A stretch of DNA of 64,000 bases. It comes from Microbacteriaceae bacterium. GTDB taxonomy: Bacteria > Actinomycetota > Actinomycetes > Actinomycetales > Microbacteriaceae. Below are positions 1,381-23,236 of this stretch, one piece after another. The notes under the pieces were generated by a model that saw nothing but the letters and a program-made list of their open reading frames with translations, made no database searches and was not told where the DNA came from. The stretch lies in contig RDDZ01000129.1 of assembly GCA_003852775.1 (NCBI GenBank), forward strand, positions 2,857 to 66,856, given 5' to 3'. Within the stretch, counting starts at the first letter, position 1. Every line of letters starts with the position of its first letter. Made by a program: the position numbers and the translations under genes.

Positions 1381-1425
1381 ACCAGACTCGCCGCCCCACG
1401 CAGCGAGTCCCTTCAGCAACACGAC

Positions 1426-3617: not shown

Positions 3618-3639
3618 GCGACGACACTGGCGCGAGATC

Positions 3640-3701
3640 GTTGACAGAGGTCAACGGTTGAGAGGTGACAACCATACGCCGATGGTTGACGGATGTCAAC
3701 C
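3640..3701. promoter_or_regulatory. array of three related palindromes (GTTGAC-N4-GTCAAC 3640-3655; GGTTG-N8-CAACC 3656-3673; GGTTGAC-N4-GTCAACC 3684-3701); probable MarR operator array
   Basis: read directly in the 96-nt region upstream of the MFS-MarR operon. Confidence 0.5.
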
Positions 3702-3713
3702 ATCCGGGAGGCC

Positions 3714-4325: not shown

Positions 4326-4336
4326 AAACGCGCAGC

Positions 4337-5295: not shown

Positions 5296-5296
5296 G

Positions 5297-6219: not shown

Positions 6220-7000
6220 GCGACCCGCACCGCGCGGCCCTCGAGCCCCGGCACGGCCGGGAAGCGCTCGAGCACGGCGGAATCATGACCGGCGACGATG
6301 ACGCCCCCTGGGCGAGCTCGTGCATGCGATCGAAGGTGCGGTGCACGTCGACGAGGTCGGTGTGCACCGCGAACGCCCGGTCCTGCTCGACGTTCTCGAA
6401 GTAGTGCGAGGCGTCGGCGGCGAGCACGACCGGCCCGTTCGCCGTCTCGACGCGCGTCACCTGCGTGCCCGGCGTGTGCCCGCCCGTGTGGTGCACCGTG
6501 ATGCCGGGCGCGAGCTCCGTGTCGCCGTCGAGCAGCCGCATCCGTCCCTCCCGCTCGAGCGCGGCGAGACGGTCGATGTCGTCGCGTTCCGCGTGGTGGC
6601 CGAGCTCGCCGCGCTCGGCGTAGGGACCCGTCCAGAAGTCGAACTCCGCGCGCTGGGCCACGAAGGTCGCCGAGGTGAACGGCTCGACGTCGCCAACGTG
6701 GTCGTTGTGGAAGTGCGAGAGGATCACGAGCGGCACCGACGCGGGGTCCGCGCCGAGGCGCGCGAGCGCCTCGCTCGGCGCCTCGACGAGGGTGCGCGGG
6801 CGGCCCTTGTTGCTCTCCGCCGTGAAGCCGACGTCGAGTACGACGTCCTGATCCGGCGAGCGCAGCAGCCACGTGAAAAAGTGCAGCACCATCTGCTCGT
6901 CGGGCGGCACCGCGGCCGCGCCCATGAAGTACCGGCCGCGCGTGCCGGTGACGTTCGTTGCGAAGCTGATGCCGTAGACCTCGTGGACGGCGACCGGCAT
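6216..7000 (-). pseudogene. MBL-fold hydrolase (AHL-lactonase-like) with a frameshift in a homopolymer
   Basis: HFHNDHVGD motif; ATG at 7000 behind GGAGGGGGGAG; the C-terminal GVIVAGHDSAVLERFP continues in another frame after the C5 run at 6304-6308; length 785 nt is not divisible by 3. Confidence 0.65.
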
Positions 7001-7802
7001 GACTACTCCCCCCTCGATGATCCGCACGACGGACGTGTGGTAGTTCGCGCCGTAGCCCGCGGCCGCCGTGCGCTCGAGCAGCTGGTGCGCGAGCGTCGCC
7101 GCCGGCAGGGTCGTGTCAAGGTCGGATGCCGCCTCGAGCGCGTACGACAGGTCCTTCATCATGTAGGTCGTCGGAAAGATCCCCTCGCCGTGCACGTCGG
7201 GCAGCAGCGCCTTGCGCCCGTGGTTCTCGAGCACGAAGCTCGCGGCCGAGCCGTTGCCGAGCGCCTGCCACGCGAGCTCCGGGTCGATGAGCCCGCTGCG
7301 GCGCACGAGCGTGATCGCCTCGGCGAGCGCGACGACCGTCTCGAAGACGACCATGTTGTTGAGGATCTTCATGAGCGCGCCCGCGCCGTTCGGACCGCAG
7401 TGCAGGACGTCGGTGGCCATGGTCCGCAGCAGCGGCTCGACGGCCGCGAAGTGCTCCGGGGGAGCCTCCCGCCGTGATGCTGAGCGTGCCGCCGACCGCG
7501 GCCTGCCGGGTGCGGGCGACGGGGGCGTCGACGAAGCCGAGCCCGAGCTCGGCCGCCGCCTCCCCGGCCCGCGTGGCGAGGGCGACGGGGCTCGTCGACA
7601 GGTCGACGACGATCGTGCCGGGGCGGGCCGCCGCGAAGACGCCGTTGTCGCCGAACAGCACCTTCTCGACCTGCGGCGCGCCCGGGAGCGACCTGAAGAC
7701 GACGTCGCTCGCGGCGGCGAGCTCGGAGACGTTCGATGCCTGCGGGCCGCCCATGACGCCCAGCCCGATGAAGCCGAGCCGCGTCGCGGCCGGGGCGCTC
7801 AC
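7001..7802 (-). pseudogene. 3-hydroxyisobutyrate-dehydrogenase-like NAD-binding dehydrogenase; frameshifted, internally deleted, no own stop
   Basis: GFIGLGVMGGP is followed too soon by ASDVVF (about 30 aa missing); frame switch at the G5 run 7458-7462; reads through the C6 run 7008-7013 into the MBL ATG. Confidence 0.6.
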
Positions 7803-9643: not shown

Positions 9644-10240
9644 TTAGCGTCGTCTCGCGGAACTCATCAGGATATGCGCGGTCGCTCCGATCGCCAGGAA
9701 GCCACCCGCGGTCACCCACGCGGCCAGGCTGTCGTCCGGTGCGAGCGCGAAGCCCCAAATCTCGGCGCCAGGGATCAGTCCTGGGCTGACAATGGCGGGA
9801 AGCAATAGAGCGGCAGCGGGCACAATCCCCGCGAGACGCCGGTCGAAGAACGCTGATGCGATCAGCCCGATGCCCCACATGCCGAGCGTCGCCTTGACGG
9901 GAGCCAGGGCGCCAAGCGTGCCGGTATCGCCGATGAGGACGGATGCAAGCATTGTCGAAGCGACGACCAGGAGCGCGGTGATGAGCCATAGCACCGCTTG
10001 CTCGAGTCGCATGGATCGCGCTGCCTGCCTCTCGAACTCGTGGAAGGCGCTGCTCACCGTATAGAGGAGAATCGCGACGACGACGAACTGCGCCGGCACT
10101 GCCAGAGGCACTGCACTCAGGTATCCGTCGTGTGTGATCTTAAGAGCCGGCGCCGCCCATAGTGGAAGCGTGAGTTCGATGAGGACGACCACGGCCAGGA
10201 TCTGGGGCAGTCGCCGGCTGAGGAGCAGTTGCCAGTTCAC
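9644..10240 (-). CDS. polytopic membrane protein (about 6 TMS), probable ABC-2-type permease partner
   Basis: hydrophobic ORF; GTG at 10240 forms a GTGA overlap with the upstream stop; last gene of the ABC operon. Confidence 0.65.
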   Translation of the reverse strand: MNWQLLLSRRLPQILAVVVLIELTLPLWAAPALKITHDGYLSAVPLAVPAQFVVVAILLYTVSSAFHEFERQAARSMRLEQAVLWLITALLVVASTMLASVLIGDTGTLGALAPVKATLGMWGIGLIASAFFDRRLAGIVPAAALLLPAIVSPGLIPGAEIWGFALAPDDSLAAWVTAGGFLAIGATAHILMSSARRR

Positions 10241-11538
10241 GGCTGGAAGTCGCTCGCGTCCCACTCGCATGACCGGATGTTCGCCGTGTGGGCTTGAACC
10301 CAAGCTCGCGCGGAAGCGTTGTCAAGTGAATACAGGCGATCGAGGGCGTCCACGACGCGCGGGTCGTTGCTCCAGGCGCCCACTCCAAGCGCGGTATCTC
10401 CGGTAAGCCATGCCTGCATGACGACGACACCGCCCAGCCCGAAGTCGCCAGCCGGCCCGTCTTGGCCGGCCTGGGTGCAGTTCATGACGTCGACGAGCGC
10501 ACCTTCGACAGAGAACCTAGCGATCTCTGTCGACTGGGGATTCAGATAAAGGCGCGCGAATCCTTGTGGTGCCCCTTGGTGGTCTGAGTCGAGTTGCTGC
10601 TCAAGCTTGTCGAACGCGAGGTCGCTTTCGGAGAAGAGATCGGCGATTCTGCTCCAGGTGTCGGTGAGTTCATCGGCCACCGGGGCGTAGTGCTCGCGAA
10701 CGCGAATGGTGAGGCCCGTATCCGCATCATTCAGGGTGATGAACGCAAGTTCTGCAGGAGCAGGCTCGCGGCTAGTCCGGCCTTGTTGCCCGATCATCAC
10801 GCCTAGGCCCGAGACGATCACGGCTCCGGCAACGATCATCGTCAGGATGGCCGGTGACCTGTAAGCACGGCGGCGTATGAAGCTGGCGGCCGCGAACACG
10901 ACAGCCGCACCGACCGAGACGAGAGCGGCGCCGCCGAAGAACATCGCGTTGGGAAGGCTCGCGTCGATCGCCACGTACTTGCGGAAGATGTTGATCCACG
11001 TGGCCACGTCGCCCGCGCGCCCAGCGAGAGTCGCGCCGTAGAGGGCAAGCGGGAGCACCGTCGCGACTGGTATCGCTGACCAATGCTGAATCGTCTCCGC
11101 GAGCGCGAAACCGATCGTCGTGAAGCTGAGAACCAGCGCAAGGGAATGCAGAAGCAAGATCGGCTCCGGGACTCCGTACAGCCCAATGAGCATCGACCTG
11201 AGCACGAGGACGAGCGCGATGCAGATCCAGGCCGCGACAACCCACGCGATCCCGCCCAGATAGCGCGGAAGAACGCTCAGCGGCGCCGGGATCGCGGAGG
11301 TCCGTCGTGCGTACTCAACGCGGCGCCGCTCATCCCGTAGTCCTTCCCATGCCCCCGCGCCCGCGAGGAACGGAGTGAGGAAGTAGGCAACGTCGAGCAT
11401 CGACGACTCGATCGAAACCCACGCAGCGATCCTGGGGAAGCTGTTCAGCCAGCCGATTGTCGCGCCCGCCAGAGCGAAGATCGGTGCCCAGTAGCGGAAC
11501 CCCGAGTGCCTCAGCTCAATGAGGAATGGGCGCTTCAT
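10237..11538 (-). CDS. membrane protein with an N-terminal multi-TMS permease-like region and a roughly 170-aa C-terminal soluble (likely extracytoplasmic) domain
   Basis: 433 aa; ATGA overlap with the ATPase stop; the C-terminal domain contains 2 Cys. Confidence 0.7.
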   Translation of the reverse strand: MKRPFLIELRHSGFRYWAPIFALAGATIGWLNSFPRIAAWVSIESSMLDVAYFLTPFLAGAGAWEGLRDERRRVEYARRTSAIPAPLSVLPRYLGGIAWVVAAWICIALVLVLRSMLIGLYGVPEPILLLHSLALVLSFTTIGFALAETIQHWSAIPVATVLPLALYGATLAGRAGDVATWINIFRKYVAIDASLPNAMFFGGAALVSVGAAVVFAAASFIRRRAYRSPAILTMIVAGAVIVSGLGVMIGQQGRTSREPAPAELAFITLNDADTGLTIRVREHYAPVADELTDTWSRIADLFSESDLAFDKLEQQLDSDHQGAPQGFARLYLNPQSTEIARFSVEGALVDVMNCTQAGQDGPAGDFGLGGVVVMQAWLTGDTALGVGAWSNDPRVVDALDRLYSLDNASARAWVQAHTANIRSCEWDASDFQP

Positions 11539-12332
11539 GCACTGGCCTGTCGGGTCTGATTGGCTCGCTGGACGAGCGCAGTGTAGGCGCGTTCCAAGGG
11601 CGTATCGCCAGGCATCTTCGGGTCCTCTTCCGCGAGCATCTCGGGAACACTGCCGGCGAACACCGCTCGTCCGCCCTCCATGACGAGCACATGATCGGCG
11701 ATGGCCTTCACGTCCTCGATCAGGTGGGAGCTGATGACGACACAGCGGTCGGCGGCGAGCCCTCGCAGCGTGTCGCGGAATCGGATGCGCTGCTCGGGAT
11801 CCAGTCCCGCGGTCGGCTCGTCCAAGGCGAGCAGACGAGGTCGGTGGACGACGGCGCTGGCGATCCCCGCACGCCGCAGCATTCCTCCAGAGAGACGTCC
11901 AAGTTTGGTGCGCCGGTGGGCGGTGAGGTCGACGAGTGCCAGCGCGTCCGCGATGAACTCGGGCCGCGCCGTCGTGGGCACTCGTTTGAGCCAGGCCGCG
12001 TACTCGAGGAACTCCTGCACGGTGAAGCCGGGGATGTAGCCGAACTGCTGGGGCAGGAATCCGACCTGGCGCATTAGCTGGAGGCGGTCTCGCTCGGTGG
12101 CAGGGAGGTTCACGCCGAGCACGCTGAGTTGCCCGGCGTGAACCCTCTGCATGGTCACGATCGCGTTGAGGAGCGTCGTCTTTCCTGCGCCGTTGCGTCC
12201 TACGAGAGCGTTGACCCCGTTGTCGAAGCGCAACGTCACGTCGTCGACGGCGGCAGTCGCTGCCCGCCGGTAGCGGATGGTCAACCCATGCGCGACTGCC
12301 CCTGATGCGTGCTCCGATGGCGATCGGCCCAT
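11535..12332 (-). CDS. ABC transporter ATP-binding protein
   Basis: Walker A GRNGAGKTT, signature LSGGMLRR, Walker B LLALDEP; ATG at 12332 behind GAGGAAGGAAG. Confidence 0.9.
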   Translation of the reverse strand: MGRSPSEHASGAVAHGLTIRYRRAATAAVDDVTLRFDNGVNALVGRNGAGKTTLLNAIVTMQRVHAGQLSVLGVNLPATERDRLQLMRQVGFLPQQFGYIPGFTVQEFLEYAAWLKRVPTTARPEFIADALALVDLTAHRRTKLGRLSGGMLRRAGIASAVVHRPRLLALDEPTAGLDPEQRIRFRDTLRGLAADRCVVISSHLIEDVKAIADHVLVMEGGRAVFAGSVPEMLAEEDPKMPGDTPLERAYTALVQRANQTRQASA

Positions 12333-12354
12333 ATGCACTTCCTTCCTCGGACGG

Positions 12355-12753
12355 TCAGCACGTCGCCTTGAGCGTGCCGCTGTTCCCGCTGTTGACCTCG
12401 AAGTTGATGCCGGCCTCGGAGAAGTAGACGTGGTCATTGCCATCGTCGCAGCCGTTCGCGCCGACGTAGTAGTCCTTCTTGTTGCCGGAGTCGCTGCCGC
12501 TGGCGATGATCGGGTGCCACCACCCCTCGCTGCGGTGCACTTCCAGCAGCAGGGTCCGCGTCGCGGTGTTGCTGCAGCTGGCGGAGCCCCATCCGTGGAT
12601 GTAGCTGCCGCTCTTGTAGGGCGTGCCGGAGATGACGGTGCAGTTCCCGTCGGTGGCACTGCCGTCGGCGAAGGCGGCGTAACCGCCGACACCGACCAGC
12701 GCGGTCGACAGAACCGCAGCTCCGGCGGCCGCGAGGATCTTCTTCATACGCAT
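12355..12753 (-). CDS. small secreted 4-Cys protein of unknown family (Sec signal peptide)
   Basis: MRMKKILAAAGAAVLSTALVGVGGYAAFA signal; the mature roughly 100 aa are Gly/Ser/Trp-rich; GGGAG lies 8 nt before the ATG. Confidence 0.7.
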   Translation of the reverse strand: MRMKKILAAAGAAVLSTALVGVGGYAAFADGSATDGNCTVISGTPYKSGSYIHGWGSASCSNTATRTLLLEVHRSEGWWHPIIASGSDSGNKKDYYVGANGCDDGNDHVYFSEAGINFEVNSGNSGTLKATC

Positions 12754-12840
12754 GATGCGACTCCCACACTCATTTGCCATCTCGAGTTCGCCAACTTCGC
12801 CGAACTCGCCCGGGCCGGGATCGACCCGTCTACAGAACTG

Positions 12841-12866
12841 GTTTGGCAGCGGCCCGTTTCCTTACA
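12841..12866 (-). promoter_or_regulatory. island motif copy e: TGTAAGGAAAC-GGGCCGCTGC-CAAAC
   Basis: read directly; 88 nt upstream of the start at 12753 and oriented toward it. Confidence 0.6.
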
Positions 12867-12892
12867 CAATCGGCCCCGGCGAGGGTGCAGTC

Positions 12893-13384
12893 TCAGCTCA
12901 CGCAGGTGAGCTGAGTGATGCCCGCGGGGGCGTAGGCGATCGAGTCGCCGTGGCTCACGCTGGCGAGGACACTGCCGCTGGAGTTCTTCGCCTGCACGTA
13001 TCCACTGCCATGCGCGTTGGCAAGGGAACGCACTGCGCTTAGCACGGAGGTGGAAACGGTAGTGTCGCAGGCGGACAGGCTAAGCTTGCTGCCAGAGAGT
13101 GCATACCCCGAGTAGGCGCAGTGATAGCCGGTGGCGCAGGAGCCGACGGACAGTGGACTGAGCTGGCTCGGATCATCGAGCGTGAGGATCATGGCGCGGT
13201 CGTGCCAGGCGATCTCGTTCGGCGCGGTCTGCGTTCCGCCGGGGAACTCTGCGAGGACCGCGTCGATGCGGGCCTGCAGAGCACTCTCGCCGGGGGTCTC
13301 GGTCGCGCTGGCGGCGATCGGCGTGCTCAACATCAGGGCGAGCCATGTCACGCAGCCACCTCGGCGATAGACAAGCCCTCCCAA
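12893..13384 (-). CDS. secreted protein, paralog of 21932..22432; the C-terminal Cys-containing domain has a C-x2-G-x2-C-aromatic motif reminiscent of peptidase-inhibitor I36/SMPI-like domains
   Basis: about half of positions match the paralog by eye (LQARIDAVLAE[FY]PGG..NEIAW, SC[AT][TA]G[YH][HY]CAY.GY.LSGSKLS); start uncertain (TTG 13384, GTG 13351 or ATG 13333). Confidence 0.65.
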   Translation of the reverse strand: MGGLVYRRGGCVTWLALMLSTPIAASATETPGESALQARIDAVLAEFPGGTQTAPNEIAWHDRAMILTLDDPSQLSPLSVGSCATGYHCAYSGYALSGSKLSLSACDTTVSTSVLSAVRSLANAHGSGYVQAKNSSGSVLASVSHGDSIAYAPAGITQLTCVS

Positions 13385-13752
13385 TAGGTGAGGTGGATTG
13401 CAGGGGCGTCCTGCGCCGGCAATCGCGTCATCGCTAGGCGAAGCTCGACATCCTCGAGGTCCCCATCCCAAGTTGCCACCTCCTGCAACTCCTCCATCAC
13501 CTGCTGTCGCATCCAGGCTTGCTGCGTCGCACGACGTTGATGCTCATTGCCGATGAGATTCCTTGCTGTCCGCAGTAGCCAGCGGATCGTGATCGTGGTG
13601 CCAGACAGATGCTTCTCCAGCGCCCGAGCGAACGCCTCAGCCGTCAGGTCTTCGGCCAGCTCTCGGTTGTCGACTCGCTGGCAGATGTACCGTTCGATCG
13701 TCCGATAGCTGCGTTCGTAGAGGCTCGTGAAGAGCTGAATGTCTGGCTCCAC
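13348..13752 (-). CDS. ECF sigma-70 paralog truncated inside region 4.2 (lacks the -35 recognition helix)
   Basis: aligns with the 20402..20935 sigma through ...LTYWEGLSIAEVAA and then stops; GTG start 45 nt downstream of motif copy d. Confidence 0.6.
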   Translation of the reverse strand: MEPDIQLFTSLYERSYRTIERYICQRVDNRELAEDLTAEAFARALEKHLSGTTITIRWLLRTARNLIGNEHQRRATQQAWMRQQVMEELQEVATWDGDLEDVELRLAMTRLPAQDAPAIHLTYWEGLSIAEVAA

Positions 13753-13796
13753 GTGCCTCCCCTCTCACGCTGGGACAACACCGTCCCGCATATACA

Positions 13797-13822
13797 GTTT
13801 GGCGAGAGCCCGAATCCTTACA
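13797..13822 (-). promoter_or_regulatory. island motif copy d: TGTAAGGATTC-GGGCTCTCGC-CAAAC
   Basis: read directly; precedes the truncated sigma gene. Confidence 0.6.
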
Positions 13823-13910
13823 CGCGGATTGGATTCTTGCTCCGCCTCCCTCAGCGGGTTGTCGGCGACCGTCCGATCAACCTCCGACGGGTGAGCCCTA
13901 CGATCGCACC

Positions 13911-14243
13911 GTGGACGACACTGCGGATCTGAGCGACGAGGTCGCCCGCTCGCTCGCCCGCAAGGCGTTCGCGTACCACATGATGAGCATCGAGCTCGGG
14001 CCGATGTCCGGGGCCAGCATCCGCGACACGCTGCTCATGGTGTGGCAGGACGCGGGCAGTCCGCCCGGCGCCTTCACGCGCGCTGCGCGGGTCGCAGCGA
14101 TCCTGGTCGACCGCATGGCCGAGTCGGACGAGGACGAGGACGATCCGCTGCGCGGGCTCGGCGTCTCCCGTGAGCAGCAGATCGCCATCGCCCAGCAGGG
14201 GGCAGCCTTCCTCACGACGCTCGCGCGCGAACTCGAGGGATAG
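13911..14243 (+). CDS. hypothetical acidic cytoplasmic protein
   Basis: 110-aa ORF with ordinary composition and no signal peptide; the only plus-strand ORF in this part of the island. Confidence 0.45.
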   Translation: MDDTADLSDEVARSLARKAFAYHMMSIELGPMSGASIRDTLLMVWQDAGSPPGAFTRAARVAAILVDRMAESDEDEDDPLRGLGVSREQQIAIAQQGAAFLTTLARELEG

Positions 14244-14290
14244 CCGCACCGGGAGCCGGTGCGCGGCGCCAGCTCAGGTCATCTCGAGCG

Positions 14291-14689
14291 TCAGTCCTCG
14301 AAATGGAAGGGCCCCGGGCATGACCTGATCGGATTGTCCGGCGCCGTGCGAACGTCGAGACGCTCGTCGACCAGCGTCGTCCCGTCGCTCATGGTCACCA
14401 CCACACGAGCGATCGTCGGTGGATTGATCGAGTCTCCGCTTCGGTAGGGCTGCTCCTGCGGGATCCCGAGTCGACCGTCACCGTCGATCGCGACCTCTGC
14501 CGGCGTACAGCCGTCATCGAGGCATGCCGACAAGATCGCGCCATCCGGCAGCGACCCCACGATCTTCACCGCGATCGGATCGGTGTTGATGTAGCCGACG
14601 GTCGTGCATGCGCAGCCGGAGAGCACCACCGGCAGGGCTGGCAGCAACGCGACCGCGACCCCGAGACGGAGTAGTCGCGGTGCCTTCAT
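14291..14689 (-). CDS. lipoprotein of unknown function
   Basis: MKAPRLLRLGVAVALLPALPVVLSGC lipobox; several Cys in the mature part. Confidence 0.65.
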   Translation of the reverse strand: MKAPRLLRLGVAVALLPALPVVLSGCACTTVGYINTDPIAVKIVGSLPDGAILSACLDDGCTPAEVAIDGDGRLGIPQEQPYRSGDSINPPTIARVVVTMSDGTTLVDERLDVRTAPDNPIRSCPGPFHFED

Positions 14690-14762
14690 GGTCAAGATGC
14701 TAAGCCGCGGGGGTTTCGGGCCGTCGCTGTGGCGAGTGGCCTGCGACATCTCCGAGGTCGTA

Positions 14763-15407
14763 TTAGGTCCCGTAGATGCTCTCGGGGGTCTGCGGGCAGT
14801 TCGCGAAGACTCTCTTCATGTCGGCCTCTGCAATGGCGATGTCCTCGAACGGCGACCATCCCGCGTTCGTCTGGATGAACACGGCCACGCTGGGCGGGTC
14901 GGGCTCGACGCTGTATCCCTCCCTCTCAAGACAGCTCACGAGCTCACCTGTCCGGTACTCGTAGAGCCTGGTCAACGCATCGGTCGACAGCGGGGTCATG
15001 TACTTGAGTTGGGTGGGGTACTTCAGCTCGCACGTATAGATCGCCAGATTCAAGGACTGGCGGAGAGTGGGGTCTTCGATCGGCGGGTAGCGGATCCCTT
15101 GTCCGTCGGCCGTTTCCGTGGCATCGAATCCCGCTTCTTGGAGGCATGCGATCTGCGTCGGTGCCCACTCGTTGAGGGTGATGAGCCGGACGAGCTCCAC
15201 CTTGGGGGGATCAACGATCCCGAGTTGGCCCGCGAGAGCAGTCGCAGTCTCATCCAGGTAGGCGCGGGTGGCGGAGTCCACTTCCGTTGCGCTCGAGTCG
15301 CTCGAGTCCGGGGGGTTTAGGGGGTCACGTTGAGGCGTGCACGCAGTGATGGTGAGCGCAACCGTGCTCACCATCACCGCGACTAGTGCCGTTCGAAGAG
15401 CCTTCAC
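14763..15407 (-). CDS. lipoprotein, paralog of 19414..20076
   Basis: VKALRTALVAVMVSTVALTITAC lipobox; GTGA overlap with the upstream small gene; shared blocks IYTC.[LI][KR]YP, PDPPS[VL].VF. Confidence 0.7.
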   Translation of the reverse strand: MKALRTALVAVMVSTVALTITACTPQRDPLNPPDSSDSSATEVDSATRAYLDETATALAGQLGIVDPPKVELVRLITLNEWAPTQIACLQEAGFDATETADGQGIRYPPIEDPTLRQSLNLAIYTCELKYPTQLKYMTPLSTDALTRLYEYRTGELVSCLEREGYSVEPDPPSVAVFIQTNAGWSPFEDIAIAEADMKRVFANCPQTPESIYGT

Positions 15408-15781
15408 GAATGGCAGACCGCGTTCCCGTAGGTGATGTCGCCGCCGATTCCGGTGAGGAACACCCGCCAGTAGTAGACGGTCGAGTAGCTGGTGAGCGAC
15501 CACCTCGTCTGCGAGGTGCTGCCGTTGTTCCAGTGGTCCAGGACGATGTAGTTGGCCTCGTGGTTGATGCCGCCGGTTGACGTCGACTGCACCTGCACGT
15601 GTGGCACCGAGCCGGAACAGACCTTGTTGTAGCCGTCGATCTGCGAAGCAGCCGAGGCCGCGACTGCCGGCACGACGGCCGCCGCCAGACCGACGGCGAG
15701 TGCGGCCGCGATCACCCGTGTCTTGCCCATGCGCTTCGTCGACCCTGGCTTGACAGCCGATCGTGGGCTTCGTCTCAGCAT
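15404..15781 (-). CDS. small secreted protein bracketed by two Cys, unknown family
   Basis: ATG at 15781 behind GAAGGAGGA; signal ...AVVPAVAASAAS; the mature roughly 80 aa have Cys near both ends. Confidence 0.7.
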   Translation of the reverse strand: MLRRSPRSAVKPGSTKRMGKTRVIAAALAVGLAAAVVPAVAASAASQIDGYNKVCSGSVPHVQVQSTSTGGINHEANYIVLDHWNNGSTSQTRWSLTSYSTVYYWRVFLTGIGGDITYGNAVCHS

Positions 15782-15832
15782 GATGTCCTCCTTCATCTTC
15801 GACCTTCATCTTCAACTGCCCTTGACTGTTCT

Positions 15833-15858
15833 GTTTGCCGAGTCGGCGAATCCTTACA
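15833..15858 (-). promoter_or_regulatory. island motif copy a: TGTAAGGATTC-GCCGACTCGG-CAAAC
   Basis: read directly; 52 nt upstream of the start at 15781. Confidence 0.6.
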
Positions 15859-15936
15859 AGATCTCGACCTTGTGAGGAGGGCGCCGCAGCTGATTCCGAT
15901 TGATCCCATGCAGCGATCCGGCGCGGTGCACTGTCT

Positions 15937-17046
15937 CTAGGGCACCCGCAGCTCACGGATCGGATCACGTCGTGCGGCGACAACGGCGGGGATCAAGGCC
16001 GCGACGACGCTCACGGCGATCGCTAGAACCGCGATTGCGGCGGTGAAGGCCAAGCCGGGGAGTGGATCGCCGCTGAACGCCAGCACCATGCTCGCAACGC
16101 CCGAACCGAGTGCAGCGCCGAGGGTCGCGAGTACGAGAGTTTGGGTGAGGAGGATGCTCACGATCAGTCCGCGGGTGGCGCCCAGGGCTCGGCGCCGACC
16201 GAAGTCCTTGCGGCGCAGCGTGACGAGCCCGGTCAGGATCGCCGCGACGAGTAGCCCACTGACGGCGAGGATCAGCAATACCAAACCACGTCCGAAGGCG
16301 CCGAGCTGCCCCTGCACAAGGGCCCGCAGCTGTGCCAGGGCCTCGCTCGTGGTGATCGTGATCTTGGTCGGGTCGTCGACGGCGAGCAAGGACTGTACCG
16401 CTGGGGCAACTGCAGCGACGAGGTCTGGCCGCTCGGCCACGACGACGAGCACGGCGACCGGTTCCGGCTCGACCGGTGCCCGTGGCACGAACAGGGCGGG
16501 CTCGAGAAACCCGAGCCAGTCTGGAATGTCCATTTGCCCGGCGACGGGGTAGTTCGCGCCGCTCTGGTTGGTGACGGAGCCTGCGTGGTCGACGAGACCG
16601 AGCTGCCCGAGCGACAGGGCGGTTCCCCAGGCAGTCGAACCCGGTAGCGCGGACGACTCGGGGATTCCGATCGACGTCAGGTGCGCGCCATAGGCGAAGC
16701 GAGCCGCGACCTTCGTTCCGTCCGGGATCAGCGTGTTGGTCACGTCGAAGGCAGGTCCGAACGCGGCGACCCATTCGATGCCGTCCACGGTGCTCAGCCG
16801 CGTCACGACCGAACTTGTCAGCCCGGCGGCGGGTTCGGCGCGCACGATGGTCGTCCGGGTTCCGGCGGAGTCGATCGAGCCGAGGACAGCCTGCTCCGCG
16901 CCGACGGTGCGGCCGGTGGTCAGCAGGACGGTTGCGCACAGCCCGGCGACCATGATGATGGTCGCGATGGAGGCGATCGGGCTGGACGCCGCGGCAGCTA
17001 GCGCCTCGCGGATGACGCCGCCGAGTCGGCGGAGCCCGGCGCTCAC
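15937..17046 (-). CDS. FtsX/MacB-type ABC permease (4 TMS with a large extracytoplasmic loop)
   Basis: TM1, a roughly 210-aa loop, then 3 C-terminal TMS; GTGA overlap with the ATPase stop. Confidence 0.8.
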   Translation of the reverse strand: MSAGLRRLGGVIREALAAAASSPIASIATIIMVAGLCATVLLTTGRTVGAEQAVLGSIDSAGTRTTIVRAEPAAGLTSSVVTRLSTVDGIEWVAAFGPAFDVTNTLIPDGTKVAARFAYGAHLTSIGIPESSALPGSTAWGTALSLGQLGLVDHAGSVTNQSGANYPVAGQMDIPDWLGFLEPALFVPRAPVEPEPVAVLVVVAERPDLVAAVAPAVQSLLAVDDPTKITITTSEALAQLRALVQGQLGAFGRGLVLLILAVSGLLVAAILTGLVTLRRKDFGRRRALGATRGLIVSILLTQTLVLATLGAALGSGVASMVLAFSGDPLPGLAFTAAIAVLAIAVSVVAALIPAVVAARRDPIRELRVP

Positions 17047-17684
17047 AGGGTGATGCTCCGATCGCAGCGTTCGACCAGGACCGGGTCGTGCGTCACGACG
17101 ATCACCGTCGCACCGCTGTCGGCGTGCTCGTGGAACGCGTCGACGACAACATCCGAGGATGCTGGGTCCAGGTTCCCGGTCGGTTCGTCGGCGAGCAGGA
17201 TCCGGGGTGTGCCCAGCAGTGCCCGGCACAGCGCGATGCGCTGCGCTTGCCCTCCGGATACCTGGCCAGGCTTCGCCTCGGACCGCAGCTGAACGCCGAA
17301 CCGTTCGAGAAGTCCCTCGGCGACCGGCACGGCCTCCGAGCGCGACTCGCCCCGATACAGCGCGGTCTCCAGCACGTTGTCGAGCACCGTGCGCGTGGCG
17401 TCGAGAGCCGCGTCCTGGAACACGAAGCCGAACTGCCGCGCCCGGAGCCTCGCCCGTGCCCGGTCGGGGAGGGATTGCACCGGCTCGCCGTCGAGCAGTA
17501 CCTGCCCCGCCGCAGGTGCGAGCATCAGTCCCAGCAGATACAGAAGGGTCGATTTCCCCCGACCGGAGGGGCCGGTGATCGCCACGACCTCCCCGGCGTT
17601 GAACGAGGCCGACCACTGGTCCAGCAGCGGTACGGTCGACTCGTAGCCGAACGTGAGATCCCGTGCATCGAGGAGTGCTGGCAT
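17043..17684 (-). CDS. ABC transporter ATP-binding protein (MacB/LolD-type)
   Basis: GPSGRGKST, VSGGQAQRIALCRAL, LLADEPTGNLD. Confidence 0.9.
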   Translation of the reverse strand: MPALLDARDLTFGYESTVPLLDQWSASFNAGEVVAITGPSGRGKSTLLYLLGLMLAPAAGQVLLDGEPVQSLPDRARARLRARQFGFVFQDAALDATRTVLDNVLETALYRGESRSEAVPVAEGLLERFGVQLRSEAKPGQVSGGQAQRIALCRALLGTPRILLADEPTGNLDPASSDVVVDAFHEHADSGATVIVVTHDPVLVERCDRSITL

Positions 17685-17688
17685 GGGG

Positions 17689-18780
17689 TCAGCCTCCGCT
17701 TGCCGGCACGCGCACGCGCAGGCCCGCGCTGACTCCCTCGATGACGGACATGCCTCGGGCGCTCGTCACGACGGTGACTCGGTGCTCGGTGCCGTCCTCC
17801 TCGAGCACAACGATCGTGCCGTCGGCGCGGGAGACCAGCGCGGCGCTCGGCACGGTCAGTCCCGTCACCGTCTCGACGGTCACGACTTGTGAGCGAAGCA
17901 GCGATTGCTCGGTGACGGAGATCGTGCCGCACTCGGTTCCGCACACCGGTGCGCCGTCGGCGCCGCCGAGGATCACGTCGATCGTCCCGCCCTGTTGCTG
18001 TGCAACCCGGTCGACGACGAACCCTTCCCAGGCTTGCCCGTCGGGTCCGGTGACCTCGACCCGCGTCCCATCGGGCATCATCCCGGACTGGGACTCGGTT
18101 ACCGGCACCCGGAACGTCGGGGCCGGCGGGAGGCCCAAGATGACGGGGTCGCTAGCGCCGAGTGACGCGCCGCGCACCACCTTGTCCGCATCGAGCGAGA
18201 TCCGCGTCGGCAGCGACGGCACGAATACCACGTCGCCCGCTTGCACCACACCGTCGACATCGACGCCGAGGCTCTCCTGCCACGCCTCGACCGCCGCCTG
18301 CGTCAGCCAACCGAAATCGCCCGAGACATCCCCCCTGTAGAAGCCGAGCTGGGTCAGCATCGCCTGGAGTTGTGCGACATCAGCCCCGGCCGTGTTTCTG
18401 GAGAGGGTTCGAAACGCGGGTACATCTCCCTGCGCGATCACTACGGGACGCAGGTTGACTGCATAGAGCACCGAGCCCACACTGACCTCCTGGCCGGCCG
18501 TGACCGAGACCGAGGTGACGGTGCCGCTCGCAAGGTTCGCAGCAATCGGGATCGGCTTCCACTCGGCCACGGTGTTCAGGTTGATGCTCGATCCGACCTC
18601 ACCGCGAACGACCTCCGCCGTCGTGAACGGCGTCGAATCCAGTACGTCGGGCGGAGGCGCGAAGATCGTGCTGCCCGCCCAGCCGACAGCTGCGCCCGCG
18701 GCCAAGAGAATGACGCCGCCGAGCACGCCACCGACCCACCAGCGGGCGCGAGACTTCGTACGACCTGATGACGAGTTCAT
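17689..18780 (-). CDS. membrane-anchored HlyD/MacA-like adaptor with an inserted peptidoglycan-binding-like repeat
   Basis: N-terminal TM; DVAQLQAMLTQLGFYRGDVSGDFGWLTQAAVEAWQ (PG_binding_1-like); beta-barrel-like C-terminus; ATG at 18780. Confidence 0.75.
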   Translation of the reverse strand: MNSSSGRTKSRARWWVGGVLGGVILLAAGAAVGWAGSTIFAPPPDVLDSTPFTTAEVVRGEVGSSINLNTVAEWKPIPIAANLASGTVTSVSVTAGQEVSVGSVLYAVNLRPVVIAQGDVPAFRTLSRNTAGADVAQLQAMLTQLGFYRGDVSGDFGWLTQAAVEAWQESLGVDVDGVVQAGDVVFVPSLPTRISLDADKVVRGASLGASDPVILGLPPAPTFRVPVTESQSGMMPDGTRVEVTGPDGQAWEGFVVDRVAQQQGGTIDVILGGADGAPVCGTECGTISVTEQSLLRSQVVTVETVTGLTVPSAALVSRADGTIVVLEEDGTEHRVTVVTSARGMSVIEGVSAGLRVRVPASGG

Positions 18781-19065
18781 GCGCCCCCTCTCGGCCGTAC
18801 CGATTCTTCCATCGAACACGGTTCCGCCGAACTCCCGCACAGCTTGGAGCTCGAGAAGCGGCCGCGTGAACGGGTGCAGTGGGTACTACCGAAGCGTCGT
18901 TGGCTCTCAATAAACAAGAGATAGGCCCTCCTAGGACTGCAGCGCGCCGGCGTCGGACGTGCGGGTGCCACAGGCACCACCCCGACCGCGTGCGTCGCGA
19001 TGATGCCTGCCGCTTGGAGTCGCGAATCGCGCGACGCCTTCATCGACTCCAGGTGATGCTCCCCG

Positions 19066-19368
19066 TCAGGTGCAGTAGGGGGTCGGGCCGCTGCTGAAGG
19101 AGTAGATGGTGGCCGCGGTCCAGTTGGCGTCGGTGTAGTTCGAAACGCTGTAGTGGACAGCGGTGTCGGACCAGCTCCAGACCTGCGAGCCAATCCAGTG
19201 CGTCAGATCCGCGCCGGTCGCGGAAGACGTCAGCGAGACCGCAGACGCTCCACCCGGGCAGTGCTTGTGCCCGCTTCCGCTCGCCATGGCGAAGGCCGGC
19301 GCGGCCAGGCCGAGCCCGATTGCCACTCCCAGCGAGGCTCCGATCAGGAGCCGCTTCCTCTTTCTCAT
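19066..19368 (-). CDS. small secreted protein bracketed by two Cys; distant relative of 15404..15781
   Basis: MRKRKRLLIGASLGVAIGLGLAAPAFA signal; mature roughly 73 aa; shared pattern C.G....V.[LV].S[ST].TG...H..W. Confidence 0.7.
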   Translation of the reverse strand: MRKRKRLLIGASLGVAIGLGLAAPAFAMASGSGHKHCPGGASAVSLTSSATGADLTHWIGSQVWSWSDTAVHYSVSNYTDANWTAATIYSFSSGPTPYCT

Positions 19369-19413
19369 GGTTCCACCCTTCCTTTCGTGATTCAGCGGAT
19401 GGGCCGACAGCGC

Positions 19414-20076
19414 CTACTCGTAAAGATCCGTCGGGTACTGCGGGCAGGCGGCGTTGATTTCTTGCCATTGATCGTTGGACTTGACCTGATTCTGAACATC
19501 GCCGTAGATGTTCCACGCGTCCGGGCTTCCGTGCTTTTCGAGGAACACCTCGAGGCTCGGTGGTTCCGGCACCGCGATGCCGAAGGATTCAAGGCATGGC
19601 GTGAGGACCGTCTTCGAGTAGTCGTAGATGCGACGCAGCTGCTCGCCGTTGAGCGGTCCCTGGAACTTCGGGTCGATCGGGTATCGGATCTTGCACGTGT
19701 AGAGCGCGACCGCGTAAGCCTCGCCTTGCTCAGCAGTATCGAAGAAGACGGACCCATCAGGTTGGGCCACGGCATCGAACCCTTCGCCGTTCAGGCATTC
19801 AGCGATAGTCGTCGCCCACTCGGGTGGCGCGACCGTGCGGACTAGGTCCGTTTCGGGACGCACCGCCCCGGGGTATCGAGCAGAGACTTGAGCCCACGCA
19901 GCGTCCGCCACCTCGCTGAGAGAAGAGTCCGAAGTTGAAGGCGCGGGCGGCTCGCTTCCCGGTGCGCTGCACGCCGTCAGGAGGAATGCGGCTGCCACCA
20001 TCGCGTATGCCGCTGCCTGGCCCCGGCGCAAGGCCGAGAGCCCGCCGGGGCGAAGCTGAACACCTTGACTCGCCAT
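19414..20076 (-). CDS. lipoprotein, paralog of 14763..15407
   Basis: ATG at 20076 behind GGAAGG; ...AAAFLLTAC lipobox. Confidence 0.7.
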   Translation of the reverse strand: MASQGVQLRPGGLSALRRGQAAAYAMVAAAFLLTACSAPGSEPPAPSTSDSSLSEVADAAWAQVSARYPGAVRPETDLVRTVAPPEWATTIAECLNGEGFDAVAQPDGSVFFDTAEQGEAYAVALYTCKIRYPIDPKFQGPLNGEQLRRIYDYSKTVLTPCLESFGIAVPEPPSLEVFLEKHGSPDAWNIYGDVQNQVKSNDQWQEINAACPQYPTDLYE

Positions 20077-20191
20077 GATGTACCTTCCGCAGTCGCGTGA
20101 TGTCTTCGCCATCAGATGTTCTCCGGAAACTCCGGCCCCTCCCGGGTGACGTACCCCGCGTTGGTCTAGGACGGGCGCGCCCGGCATCCCT

Positions 20192-20221
20192 TCACAGTCG
20201 ATCGGGGCTTCGTCTCAGCAC
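20192..20221 (-). pseudogene. relic of a small-secreted-protein gene start (GTG-LRRSPDRL-stop)
   Basis: GGAGGACATCGTGCTGAGACGAAGCCC matches GGAGGACATCATGCTGAGACGAAGCCC at 15781; a 1-nt deletion then gives TGA. Confidence 0.6.
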
Positions 20222-20257
20222 GATGTCCTCCTGCATCGGAATACCCTCGAGTGTTCT

Positions 20258-20283
20258 GTTTGCTGAGTCGGCGAATCCTTACA
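20258..20283 (-). promoter_or_regulatory. island motif copy b: TGTAAGGATTC-GCCGACTCAG-CAAAC
   Basis: read directly; faces the lipoprotein operon. Confidence 0.6.
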
Positions 20284-20330
20284 AACTTCGGTCTGTCGAG
20301 CGGCGACGCGCAGCGCGCCCGAAATCTGAA

Positions 20331-20356
20331 TGTAAGGATTCGGCGGCTCGGCAAAC
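20331..20356 (+). promoter_or_regulatory. island motif copy c: TGTAAGGATTC-GGCGGCTCGG-CAAAC
   Basis: read directly; 46 nt upstream of the sigma GTG start; back-to-back with copy b. Confidence 0.6.
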
Positions 20357-20401
20357 TCTTATACGAGAAGCAGACTGTGCCTACAGCCAGGGGGAGGGTT
20401 A

Positions 20402-20935
20402 GTGGAGCCGGATCCCGAGGCTTTCACCAAGCTCTACCTCAGCAACTACCGGACGCTGGTCCGCTACACCTACCTACGTGTCAACGACCGAGCCTTGGCG
20501 GAGGACCTTGCCGAAGATGCGTTCCTGCTCGCCTGGGAGAAAGCACCGAGCCTGGAAGCGGTCACCCCCCGCTGGCTGTTCGCCACCGTGAGGAATCTGA
20601 TCGGCAACGAATACCAACGACGCGATCGAGAGCGCATCAGAGTACAGCAAGCGGGAATGGAGGAAGCCGCGAGCGTGGAGGCGTGGGGATTGCACATCGA
20701 GCACATCGGACTCCGCCTGGCGATGGCCGAGCTGCGCCCGGATGACTCGCTCCTGCTCCAGCTGACCTACTGGCACGGGTTGTCCGCTGCCGAGACCGCT
20801 GAGTTCCTGGACTGCACGGTCGCCGCGGTGTGGGTTCGGCTGACTCGGGCTCGCGCGGCGTTGCGCACGCTCCTGGACGATGCCAACGTCATGCCTTCGC
20901 GTCGACGAGATCGAGGCGGTAAGGCTCATGGATGA
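20402..20935 (+). CDS. ECF (group 4) sigma-70 factor, full length
   Basis: region 2 (DLAEDAFLLAW, RWLFATVRNLIGNEYQRR) and region 4.2 HTH (LSAAETAEFLDCTVAAVWVRLTRAR). Confidence 0.85.
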   Translation: MEPDPEAFTKLYLSNYRTLVRYTYLRVNDRALAEDLAEDAFLLAWEKAPSLEAVTPRWLFATVRNLIGNEYQRRDRERIRVQQAGMEEAASVEAWGLHIEHIGLRLAMAELRPDDSLLLQLTYWHGLSAAETAEFLDCTVAAVWVRLTRARAALRTLLDDANVMPSRRRDRGGKAHG

Positions 20936-21929
20936 CCTGACCCGGCTGCTGCGCGAGAACAATCCCTTCCGGGACGCGCCGTTGCCCGAACGCGCGACGC
21001 GACGGCTTGACGACATCATCTCGGGCCGACGGGAGACTCGCCACGATGTCGCCCTCCCACCGCTTCGAAGCCAACGGACGCCCGCGCTGCTGGCGGGGGC
21101 GGCCTTCGTCGTGACGCTGGTGGTCGTCGCGCTGGTCCTGGTGTCCGTGCGCCCGCAGGTTGCGATGGCTGTGACTCCGAACCTGCTCGAGCTCCGCCCG
21201 ACCGTGACCACCATCGACACCTTGCGCGAGGATCTCGTGACGTCACCCCTGAACCCGCGGCCGACCGCGACTAGCCGTGGCGCCCAGTGGGAAGGCTGGT
21301 TCCTTCAGCTCGACGCCGACCGACCGGCGGCGACCTTCATCCAGCCGCAGCGCGTCCAGATCGCCTGGGGCGAGGATTTCTCGGGCAGCAGCCGCATCGT
21401 CGCCGGGACGCCGATGACCGCCGATGGCTCCGTGATCGAGCCGGTCCCCGCGGGTGCGGCCGCGCCGGGCACCACGCTCTACGAGGAGACCTGGGGACCT
21501 GGCGAGTACCCGGTGCCCTTCCCGGAGGCTCCGCCCGAGGACGCTGCTGGGATGCGCGGCTACCTCGAGGCCTTCCTCGCCTCGCTCGGCGTCACCGAGG
21601 CGGGGTCACGCTCCGCCGGCGAGTATCTGTATGCCCTCAGCTCGCTGATGCAGTTCTGGACTCTCGGCGACGCGGCCCAGCGCACCGCTATCGAAGTGAT
21701 CGTCTCCGCTCCTGGCTTCCAGGTGGCGGGTGAAACGACCGATCGGGCCGGCCGTGCCGGGGTCGTCCTGGACATCGCGCCGACCGAGCTCGAGCCCGGC
21801 TATCGGACGCAGCTCGTCGTCGACATCCGATCCTGGCGACTGCTGGCCGTCGAGCGAATCAGTATCGCCGGCGACCCAGACTTCCACATTGCCCCTGATT
21901 CGGTAACCGACTACACCCTCTGGAGATAG
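20928..21929 (+). CDS. single-pass membrane protein in the anti-sigma position with a roughly 260-aa extracytoplasmic domain
   Basis: 8-nt overlap with the sigma stop; N-terminus MDDLTRLLRENNP...; TM ALLAGAAFVVTLVVVALVLVSV. Confidence 0.7.
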   Translation: MDDLTRLLRENNPFRDAPLPERATRRLDDIISGRRETRHDVALPPLRSQRTPALLAGAAFVVTLVVVALVLVSVRPQVAMAVTPNLLELRPTVTTIDTLREDLVTSPLNPRPTATSRGAQWEGWFLQLDADRPAATFIQPQRVQIAWGEDFSGSSRIVAGTPMTADGSVIEPVPAGAAAPGTTLYEETWGPGEYPVPFPEAPPEDAAGMRGYLEAFLASLGVTEAGSRSAGEYLYALSSLMQFWTLGDAAQRTAIEVIVSAPGFQVAGETTDRAGRAGVVLDIAPTELEPGYRTQLVVDIRSWRLLAVERISIAGDPDFHIAPDSVTDYTLWR

Positions 21930-21931
21930 CA

Positions 21932-22432
21932 ATGCGCAACATCACGACCGGTCGCGGCCGTATGGCTGCCCTCGCCGTCATCGGGGCCATCGCCCTGATC
22001 CTCGGCACGCCGCTCGCCGCATCAGCGGCGGACAAGGACTCCGACGCGCTCCAGGCGCGCATCGACGCTGTGCTCGCCGAGTACCCCGGCGGCGTGCAGA
22101 TCGCCGCCAACGAGATCGCCTGGGACGAAGGTGCCGTGGTGCTCACGCTCGATGCTCCCGGCTCCGCGTTCGGCGTGCTGGACGTCGGCTCGTGCACGGC
22201 TGGCCACTACTGCGCCTACAACGGCTACAGCCTCAGCGGAAGCAAGCTGAGCTTCAGCTCGTGCGCCACCCCGCAGCCCACCGGCATCATCGGCACGGTG
22301 CGGTCGGTCGCCAACGCACGCACTAGCGGCTCCGTCTACGCCCTCAACTCGGGCGGCGGCATCCTGGCGACCATCGGCGCGAACGACTCCCTGCCTATTG
22401 CGCCCGGCGGCATCACTGACCTCTCCTGCTGA
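21932..22432 (+). CDS. secreted protein, paralog of 12893..13384 (I36/SMPI-like Cys motif)
   Basis: signal MAALAVIGAIALILGTPLAASA; starts 2 nt after the anti-sigma stop. Confidence 0.75.
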   Translation: MRNITTGRGRMAALAVIGAIALILGTPLAASAADKDSDALQARIDAVLAEYPGGVQIAANEIAWDEGAVVLTLDAPGSAFGVLDVGSCTAGHYCAYNGYSLSGSKLSFSSCATPQPTGIIGTVRSVANARTSGSVYALNSGGGILATIGANDSLPIAPGGITDLSC

Positions 22433-22506: not shown

Positions 22507-22532
22507 TGTAAGGAATGGGCGTCCCAACAAAC
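22507..22532 (+). promoter_or_regulatory. island motif copy f: TGTAAGGAATG-GGCGTCCCAA-CAAAC
   Basis: read directly; 66 nt upstream of the ATG at 22598. Confidence 0.55.
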
Positions 22533-22597: not shown

Positions 22598-23236
22598 ATG
22601 GGATCTACGAAGAAGCTCGGGCTGCTGTTCGCAGCAGCCCTCGCGATGGTCTTCATCGCTCCCGCCGCAGCTCAGGCTGCGGCGGCAGACTCGCCACCGC
22701 CGGCGACTGCATCAGACAGCTCTAACGTGAACAGCCTGATCGCGAGCGATCCGAACGCGGAGTTCGTCTCGCTCGAGGTCGCAGAGAAGCAGTACGGGTT
22801 CGACCCCTATGCCGCCGATGCGACGGAGAGCACCGGCCCCGTCGTCACGCCGTTCTACGCATGGTGGGGATGTGACTGGGACGCCGTCACGGACTATCCG
22901 CACGTGAGCTCGGGCCAGGCATCGGTTCACGGGTACTGGGTCTACAACAGCGGCGACTGCCCGGCTACGGCCACTGTAACCGTCAACCTCCAGGCGCTTT
23001 GGTGCAGCGGGATGTGGGGTTGCAGCTGGTACACGCTGGCGACCGACGTCGCGACTGGCGTCTACCCGGGCTCGGGCACGGGTCACTGGGCCACGCCCCA
23101 TTCCCCTTGTGCGACCACGTCCGTCGTCGGCTGGCGGGGCTCGGTTTTTGTCGAGCCGACGGACTTCTGGCACCCCTACGGCTGGACGGACGGCACGCCG
23201 CAGAACCTCTCCTGCTCCCCGCCGGATCCGAGCTGA
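22598..23236 (+). CDS. secreted Trp/Cys-rich protein of unknown family
   Basis: signal MGSTKKLGLLFAAALAMVFIAPAAAQA; the mature part has 8 Cys and many Trp (WWGCDW, LWCSGMWGCSWY). Confidence 0.7.
   Translation: MGSTKKLGLLFAAALAMVFIAPAAAQAAAADSPPPATASDSSNVNSLIASDPNAEFVSLEVAEKQYGFDPYAADATESTGPVVTPFYAWWGCDWDAVTDYPHVSSGQASVHGYWVYNSGDCPATATVTVNLQALWCSGMWGCSWYTLATDVATGVYPGSGTGHWATPHSPCATTSVVGWRGSVFVEPTDFWHPYGWTDGTPQNLSCSPPDPS

Follow-up and report, generated by a model that had tools for sequence, protein, structure and literature searches.

Organization of the locus

This study concerns a 64,000-nucleotide stretch of DNA from a Microbacteriaceae bacterium (GenBank assembly GCA_003852775.1, contig RDDZ01000129.1, positions 2,857 to 66,856; the window below) and, within it, a cluster in which two genes for small secreted proteins, smallA and smallB, each adjoin a gene for a lipoprotein, lipoA and lipoB, respectively, around the genes for a MacAB-like pump. 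A reading of the sequence alone had singled out these four open reading frames (ORFs), and all four are indeed present, on the minus strand. Along that strand, the order is a promoter-like motif, lipoB, smallB, a putative membrane-fusion adaptor, an ATP-binding cassette (ABC) ATPase, an FtsX permease, a second copy of the motif, smallA, lipoA, and a third lipoprotein (Table 1). From the comparisons described here, it is quite probable that each small secreted protein and its lipoprotein form a cognate binding pair that is functionally tied to the pump.

Table 1. Features of the locus and its surroundings in the window
Feature	Coordinates	Strand	Description
lipoB	19414..20076	-	220 aa, lipobox LLTAC, lipoA paralog
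smallB	19066..19368	-	100-aa precursor, Sec signal AFA/MAS
Putative membrane-fusion adaptor	17689..18840	-	383 aa, MacA/HlyD-like, with PG_binding_1
ABC transporter ATPase	17043..17684	-	213 aa, ABC_tran 9.9e-30
FtsX/MacB-type permease	15937..17049 (start approximate)	-	~370 aa, FtsX 1.9e-9
smallA	15404..15781	-	125-aa precursor, Sec signal ASA/AS
lipoA	14763..15407	-	214 aa, lipobox TITAC
Third lipoprotein (lipo152)	14291..14749	-	152 aa, lipobox VLSGC; unrelated to lipoA/lipoB; last gene of smallA operon
ECF sigma factor	20402..20935	+	177 aa; Sigma70_r2, Sigma70_r4_2
CU044_5270-family protein	20880..21929	+	349 aa, putative anti-sigma; E=3.1e-17, below curated cut-off
Peptidase-inhibitor I36-like protein	21932..22432	+	166 aa, secreted; Inhibitor_I36 23.4 bits vs cut-off 21.1
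Secreted Cys-rich protein, 212 aa	22598-23236	+	behind motif copy 22508-22532
Secreted Cys-rich protein, 141 aa	12355-12780	-	behind motif copy 12841-12865
Motif copy	20258..20283	-	upstream of lipoB, inside ~110-nt copy of smallA promoter/leader
Motif copy	15833..15858	-	upstream of smallA-lipoA-lipo152
Motif copy	20332..20356	+	upstream of ECF sigma gene, divergent from lipoB promoter
Motif copy	13797-13821	-	upstream of truncated second sigma gene
Motif copy	22508-22532	+	upstream of 212-aa secreted protein
Motif copy	12841-12865	-	upstream of 141-aa secreted protein
Decayed second regulatory arm	12893..13821	-	motif, truncated ECF sigma 13348-13752, I36-like paralog 12893-13471
Second ABC ATPase	11535-12320	-	directly downstream of 141-aa secreted protein
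433-aa ORF	10237-11538	-	no Pfam match
110-aa ORF	13911-14243	+	sub-threshold Pfam matches only (NGO1945_C, E=0.023)
tRNA-Ser	33474-33565		
tRNA-Ser	34923-35008		

The lipoproteins

The proposed paralogy of lipoA and lipoB is borne out by BLASTP (32% identity over 201 aa, E=1e-27), and the sequence blocks said to be common to them, YTC.[LI][KR]YP and PDPPS/PEPPS, were both found. Each has a lipobox with a cysteine at position +1, which is invariant in 20 sequences, and the mature part of the lipoproteins is acidic (pI 4.2) with four conserved cysteines. Cys, Pro, Tyr, and Trp residues are invariant in the family, but an invariant catalytic set of the His, Lys, or Ser type is absent, and charge is conserved only at R80 and the near-invariant E86 in the broad alignment. 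This pattern of conservation fits a binder better than an enzyme. Alignments of this breadth were too divergent for a pattern scan of metagenomes.

An AF2 model of lipoA is all-alpha, with seven helices, and has a predicted local distance difference test score (pLDDT) of 83.7 overall and above 90 across most of residues 41-214. Foldseek found no match to it below E=2 in the PDB or BFVD, a profile search gave no PDB sequence match to the lipoproteins below E=0.2, and they belong to no family in Pfam, NCBIfam, or PADLOC. A phospholipase A2-like fold for lipoA was considered and rejected, given that the matches were weak (E>3) and that the family lacks an invariant His or Asp.

The third lipoprotein, lipo152, has been kept downstream of lipoA in three related loci (L005, L007, and L008). 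Small lipoproteins (148-152 aa) in which Cys-rich motifs follow the lipobox occur near the pairs both in the window, as lipo152, and in locus L016 (2484-2930); the resemblance is by eye, and BLAST at E<=1e-3 gave no link between the two.

The small secreted proteins

smallA and smallB carry, as read from the sequence, Sec-type signal peptides with AXA cleavage sites, which leave mature proteins of ~80 and ~73 aa, respectively, of about 8 kDa; for smallA, alternative starts lie at 15796 or at Met18. Each precursor contains, as first reported, exactly two cysteines, near the ends of the mature chain (residues 55 and 123 of 125 in smallA and 37 and 99 of 100 in smallB). The mature part of smallB is beta-rich by composition, and the family of smallA is marked by the motifs NH, WNNGST, and TGxGGD. 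From their composition, the small proteins would be closer to binding modules than to cationic membrane-active peptides. No match to either was found in Pfam, NCBIfam, PADLOC, or PDB sequences. The Foldseek matches of a smallA model were set aside as meaningless at its pLDDT of 51.

Both small genes lie tightly against a lipoprotein gene. The stop codon of smallA overlaps the GTG start of lipoA as GTGA (15404-15407), as had been noted, which indicates that the two genes are translationally coupled, and the 45 nt described between the lipoB stop codon (19414) and the smallB ATG (19368) were likewise found.

The assessment of the relationship between smallA and smallB is complicated by their low similarity. 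What the two securely share is architecture and context. Their sequence similarity is not statistically robust (p 0.0015-0.14 by profile), and the motif C.G....V.[LV].S[ST].TG...H...W suggested for both holds only up to TG, its H requiring a one-residue gap and its trailing W not fitting at all. BLASTP aligns the two at E=9e-4, mainly over the signal peptides and a short block after the first Cys. A hidden Markov model of the smallA family (family A) scored 9.6 bits on smallB, a value equaled or bettered by 3 of 2000 shuffled sequences, and a model from a slightly different family-A set scored 2.7 bits, with 425 of 3000 shuffles equal or better. Alignment of families A and B by hhalign gave P=0.013 and a probability of 1.5-3%, jackhmmer kept them separate with no merger, and leave-one-family-out tests among the small-protein families were unstable. 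We consider homology of smallA and smallB plausible.

Conservation of the pairs beside a MacAB-like pump

Relatives of these genes are few. The lipoA type is represented by 18 proteins among 5.8e9, by two loci in 185,579 species genomes (those of a Microbacteriaceae metagenome-assembled genome [MAG] and of Microbacterium helvum NEAU-LLC), and by nine metagenome loci. A word-indexed homolog search returned three relatives of smallA and one of smallB, while exhaustive phmmer searching of 1.84e9 representative proteins returned three for smallB, all of them beside the same pump.

Within this small set, the genes keep constant company. Wherever a small gene occurs in the lineages examined, a lipoprotein gene adjoins it, family A members lying next to lipoA-type genes in L001, L002, L011-15, and L020; in related Microbacteriaceae contigs, this unit is nearly always found beside one MacAB-like pump, and the pairing is kept across lineages of only 38-59% identity. 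In L002, L013, and L020, the genes for the small protein, lipoprotein, adaptor, ABC ATPase, and FtsX permease form one operon; L013 and L020, with near-identical small proteins, probably represent one lineage. Locus L016 has six different small proteins with Sec signals and bracketing cysteines, whose genes are interspersed with those of five lipoprotein paralogs near the same pump, and L019 has a smallB relative (41%) facing a short member of the lipoprotein family beside the pump, inside a defence island. One MAG holds both L005-type and L016-type loci.

The array in L016 also allows partners to be compared. The best match of lipoB in that locus (51%) lies beside the ortholog of smallB (56%), and the nearest relative of lipoA lies beside the only A-like small protein there. 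Hence, small proteins and lipoproteins codiverge. In other loci, only lipoproteins are found: about ten paralogs adjoin the pump in L003, L004, and L009, where there is neither a small gene nor a remnant of one, and L010 has a solitary lipoprotein with no small-gene remnant and no pump nearby. Such lipoprotein-only loci are as would be expected for orphan immunity genes.

The surroundings of some of these loci were also recorded. L016 carries a TrwC relaxase and another extracytoplasmic function (ECF) sigma factor with a 289-aa partner (1-5400); L019 carries SIR2, cyclic-oligonucleotide-based antiphage signaling system (CBASS; SMODS/SAVED), RES, and AvrD genes (1-7200 and 11800-16300); and in L020, an AfsA butyrolactone-synthase homolog and a TetR regulator lie directly upstream of the five-gene operon (3100-4700).

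The pump itself consists of a putative adaptor with a peptidoglycan-binding domain, a separate ABC ATPase, and a permease with an FtsX domain; the latter two place it in the MacB type. The PG_binding_1 domain of the adaptor is clear (5.5e-13), while the matches to Biotin_lipoyl_2 (4.3e-4) and RND_mfp (1.7e-4) are both below threshold. The adaptor is syntenic in L002, L004, L013, L016, L019, and L020, and the permease is 97% identical to that of L005 and 52-82% identical to those of other related loci.

Old pairs and recent turnover

The two pairs had been described as a duplicated two-gene cassette, a description that does not stand in its simple form. Their gene order is inverted (small-lipoprotein versus lipoprotein-small), which together with the 32% identity of the lipoproteins indicates old paralogous pairs rather than a recent duplication of a cassette. 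What has been duplicated recently is a segment of about 110 nt containing the promoter, the ribosome-binding site, and the first ~10 codons of smallA, which has been copied upstream of lipoB (20170-20300 versus 15740-15875) and ends there in a 9-codon dead ORF, a remnant of the smallA 5' end (20205-20237). A close relative, L005, which is 93-98% identical in nucleotide sequence, has at the same place (L005 2135-3170) a different promoter followed by a third cassette, smallG and an overlapping short lipoG, situated between the promoter and lipoB; the window is without it. This suggests recombinational replacement upstream of lipoB in the lineage of the window. Relative to L005, purifying selection was evident in nine gap-free genes, among them smallA, smallB, and lipoB (dN/dS, the ratio of nonsynonymous to synonymous substitution rates, 0.06-0.43; lipoA was left out since its alignment is gapped).

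A shared promoter motif and a putative ECF regulon

A promoter-like motif, GTAAGGAWNNG-N9-CAAAC (TGTAAGGATTCG-N9-CAAAC upstream of lipoB), is present in six copies in the window, where none would be expected by chance, and all six fall within 12.8-22.5 kb (Table 1). One of them precedes the gene for an ECF sigma factor with both sigma-70 regions 2 and 4, the end of which is overlapped by the gene for a CU044_5270-family protein that is, from its position only, a putative anti-sigma factor. The motif stands before the sigma gene itself as well as before other units, as is characteristic of an ECF regulon under its own control, and we infer that all six copies depend on this sigma factor. Outside the close relatives of the window, the motif was absent from the other related loci that were scanned.

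Two further copies precede genes for secreted Cys-rich proteins of 141 and 212 aa, which may be additional effectors of the same regulon. Neither protein has a family match in NCBIfam or Pfam. There is a distant likeness between the two around HG[WY]...C...T.T. An Rfam match to radC RNA at 22607-22747 (+), within the gene for the 212-aa protein, is probably due to chance (28.4 bits versus a gathering score of 40). The second ABC ATPase and the 433-aa ORF, which follow the 141-aa protein directly and lie in the lower-GC stretch described below, may constitute a second transporter of the island. The 110-aa ORF, a candidate gene on the opposite strand, is situated between the smallA operon and the truncated sigma gene.

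Two copies of the regulatory arm occur, inverted relative to each other (12893-13821 and 20332-22432), with an 81% repeat, I1, at 13170-13282 and 22046-22158. The left copy has decayed: its sigma factor lacks the end of region 4, and its I36-like paralog has a signal peptide that is cut by the junction. As the junction runs straight into this signal peptide, the anti-sigma gene has been deleted from the left arm.

The island and its borders

The window is GC rich (70-72%), but the cluster lies in a stretch of lower GC content (~65%) at ~10-24 kb, flanked by DNA of 70-75%, as would fit a horizontally acquired island in this soil actinobacterium. The island looks accessory, given its lower GC content, the rarity of the families, and the mobile, defence, and AfsA-TetR neighborhoods of related loci. 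Its edges showed neither a tRNA nor an integrase; apart from the two tRNA-Ser genes in Table 1, the window has no tRNAs. Scans of the island with Pfam and NCBIfam revealed no modification enzymes among its genes, Rfam returned nothing beyond the one radC match, and a scan for sigma-70 promoters and terminators was uninformative.

Discussion

Our tentative explanation for these cognate pairs, which we hold as possible rather than probable, is that the small proteins are polymorphic effectors secreted through Sec, with the lipoproteins conferring cognate immunity and the pump assisting in self-protection. In this scheme, the small protein would be a diffusible antagonist, exported by Sec and locked by one disulfide, that is, a protein bacteriocin binding an envelope target. 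The lipoprotein, anchored to the membrane, would bind the small protein on the outside of the membrane and thereby act as a specific immunity protein, and the pump would rid the membrane-wall zone of the effector, much as YknXYZ deals with SDP. One ECF sigma factor would, in this strain, turn on the whole set through the six shared motif copies. Physical binding, toxicity, the target, and the roles of the pump and the sigma factor are all things that we infer here from gene content and comparison.

An effector/immunity function fits the data best because of the polymorphic arrays, the lipoprotein-only arrays, the turnover of cassettes, the patchy distribution, and the mobile and defence neighborhoods. 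Traits of toxin-immunity pairs are indeed present, namely, adjacent coinherited cognate genes, polymorphism, and loci with lipoproteins only, and a cassette gained or lost between strains as close as L005 and the window lends further support. The original suggestion of effector/immunity pairs tied to an ABC transporter thus stands as far as comparative context bears on the cognate pairs and the transporter, but no toxin domain was found. Its analogy with lantibiotic loci did not survive at the family level: there were no LanI or Lcn972 matches, and the transporter is of the FtsX/MacB type. The lantibiotic immunity transporters LanFEG are of a different, ABC-2 type.

Several observations weigh against secreted effectors with cognate immunity. 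No toxin, bacteriocin, or immunity family was matched in Pfam, NCBIfam, PADLOC, or the PDB. Selection on smallA, smallB, and lipoB is strong (dN/dS 0.06-0.19), and the small proteins have not evolved faster than the lipoproteins, being 99% identical to their L005 counterparts compared with 94% for the lipoproteins. The small proteins are near neutral (pI 4.6-9.2), with a high content of Ser, Thr, Gly, Asn, and aromatic residues, unlike cationic membrane-active bacteriocins; the AF2 model of smallA, built from a four-sequence alignment, is all-beta but unreliable; and homology among the small-protein families is weakly supported. In M. helvum (L001), a stand-alone pair of small protein and lipoprotein occurs with no pump within 10 kb. 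Finally, ECF-sigma control and the protease-inhibitor homolog would fit a defensive regulon.

We found no description of a system of small protein, lipoprotein, and pump in the literature, and the locus would seem to work like known bacteriocin/immunity/pump loci while belonging to none of the families tested. One of its closest parallels in design is the SDP/SdpI/YknWXYZ system of Bacillus subtilis, in which the MacB-type YknXYZ, with a peptidoglycan-binding MacA-like adaptor, an ABC ATPase, and an FtsX-type permease, protects the cell from SDP, a cannibalism toxin with a single disulfide that the cell itself exports through Sec (PMC5985334). Other precedents for MacB-type pumps are MacAB-TolC, with the Sec/Dsb-dependent STII, and AS-48EFGH (PMC5985334). 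The island nevertheless has no sequence relationship to the SDP system: its products are beta-rich proteins of ~75-80 aa rather than a 42-aa peptide, its putative immunity protein is a lipoprotein with a soluble domain, whereas SdpI is polytopic, and its pairs are multiplied and polymorphic. The SDP system is also under ECF-sigma control.

The loci for lactococcin 972, a Sec-dependent bacteriocin with a beta-sandwich fold and an immunity system of ABC and large membrane proteins, resemble the island in that an unmodified small beta-rich protein with a Sec signal is encoded next to an ABC-type transporter, and a binding rather than pore-forming mode of action is plausible. Yet neither smallA nor smallB matched PF09683/TIGR01653 in Pfam and NCBIfam at E<=0.01, nor did five other L016 small proteins and eight family-A members match lactococcin 972 in Pfam at E<=1, and in contrast to lactococcin 972, the island proteins are Cys bracketed, neutral rather than cationic, and accompanied by a lipoprotein. 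That partner brings to mind NisI and SpaI of lantibiotic loci and TipC, the partner of TelC, which are lipid anchored on the outside of the membrane and whose genes adjoin those for a secreted product and an ABC transporter. Searches of Pfam, NCBIfam, and the PDB and Foldseek comparison of the lipoA model revealed no sequence or fold similarity to them; the island lipoprotein is all-alpha with four conserved cysteines, and its transporter is MacB type, not LanFEG type. Polymorphic toxin loci of the contact-dependent inhibition (CDI), Rhs, LXG, and type VI secretion system (T6SS) kinds likewise have arrays of divergent cognate pairs and arrays of immunity genes only, turnover of cassettes between strains, and association with mobile or defence islands. 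In contrast to these, the island has neither a dedicated secretion system nor a conserved delivery domain, variation extends over the entire small protein, and export would be by plain Sec.

A somewhat unlikely alternative is that the locus is a defensive envelope-stress module without a weapon, in which the ECF sigma factor senses attack on the envelope and induces the pump while the lipoproteins and small proteins serve as accessory neutralizers, decoys, or inhibitors directed at foreign antimicrobials or lytic enzymes. All units stand behind one ECF-type motif that also precedes the sigma gene, the regulon includes the Inhibitor_I36 homolog, and the small proteins lack a cationic character. 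The membership of YknWXYZ in the sigma-W regulon would point the same way, as would the classical role of small, disulfide-stabilized proteins secreted by Actinobacteria as inhibitors of enzymes. Gram-positive MacB-type pumps are reported to be mostly resistance devices (PMC5985334). Such a module would leave unexplained, however, why each small protein keeps its own codiverging lipoprotein, why there are arrays of many divergent pairs, and why small genes disappear from loci in which lipoproteins are retained. Moreover, the sigma link is confined to the lineage of the window, as the motif is absent from other loci and no sigma match was found near L002 and L013.

We regard it as rather improbable that the lipoproteins are instead clients or partners of a MacB-type transporter, by Lol-like release or FtsEX-like mechanotransmission, with the small proteins as ligands or cargo in surface display, wall remodeling, or complex release. 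The MacB-family members LolCDE and FtsEX do act on lipoproteins or extracytoplasmic partners (PMC5985334), the adaptor has a peptidoglycan-binding domain, and the link of lipoprotein and pump is the most constant feature of these loci, being kept even in arrays of about ten lipoproteins without small genes. Members of the lipoprotein family do occur, however, without a pump nearby (L001 and L010), and no hydrolase or other FtsEX-type partner is present in the loci. The more specific proposal that the transporter extracts or releases lipoprotein-small protein complexes in a Lol-like manner in a monoderm, the paralog arrays being a repertoire of cargo rather than of immunity genes, has a slim chance of being correct; on extraction, the sequences say nothing.

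Similarly, we see little prospect that the small protein is a nontoxic secreted signal and the lipoprotein its receptor, for kin or strain recognition or quorum-type signaling. Pairs that are polymorphic, cognate, and strain variable would suit recognition, AfsA/TetR-type genes lie beside the L020 operon, and in both the window and L016, an ECF sigma/anti-sigma pair is found next to the pairs. The lipoprotein, however, has no cytoplasmic output domain, nothing ties it to the anti-sigma factor, and the constant association with a pump would go unexplained. That the small ORFs are coincidental neighbors with no functional tie to the lipoproteins, for which the lack of significant direct similarity between smallA and smallB might be cited, is very unlikely in view of the adjacency that recurs wherever a small gene was found, the translational coupling of smallA and lipoA, the codivergence of partners, and the purifying selection on both small genes.

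In conclusion, if the explanation in terms of effectors and cognate immunity is true, these loci would encode an unrecognized class of Sec-dependent protein antagonists in the Microbacteriaceae, together with an immunity lipoprotein that has no known fold relative and is mechanistically tied to a Gram-positive MacAB-like pump. The six-promoter ECF regulon and a cultured carrier with a single pair, M. helvum NEAU-LLC, make the proposal directly testable. Even if the function of the locus were to prove defensive or structural, two annotation-free protein families would gain a defined genomic grammar.

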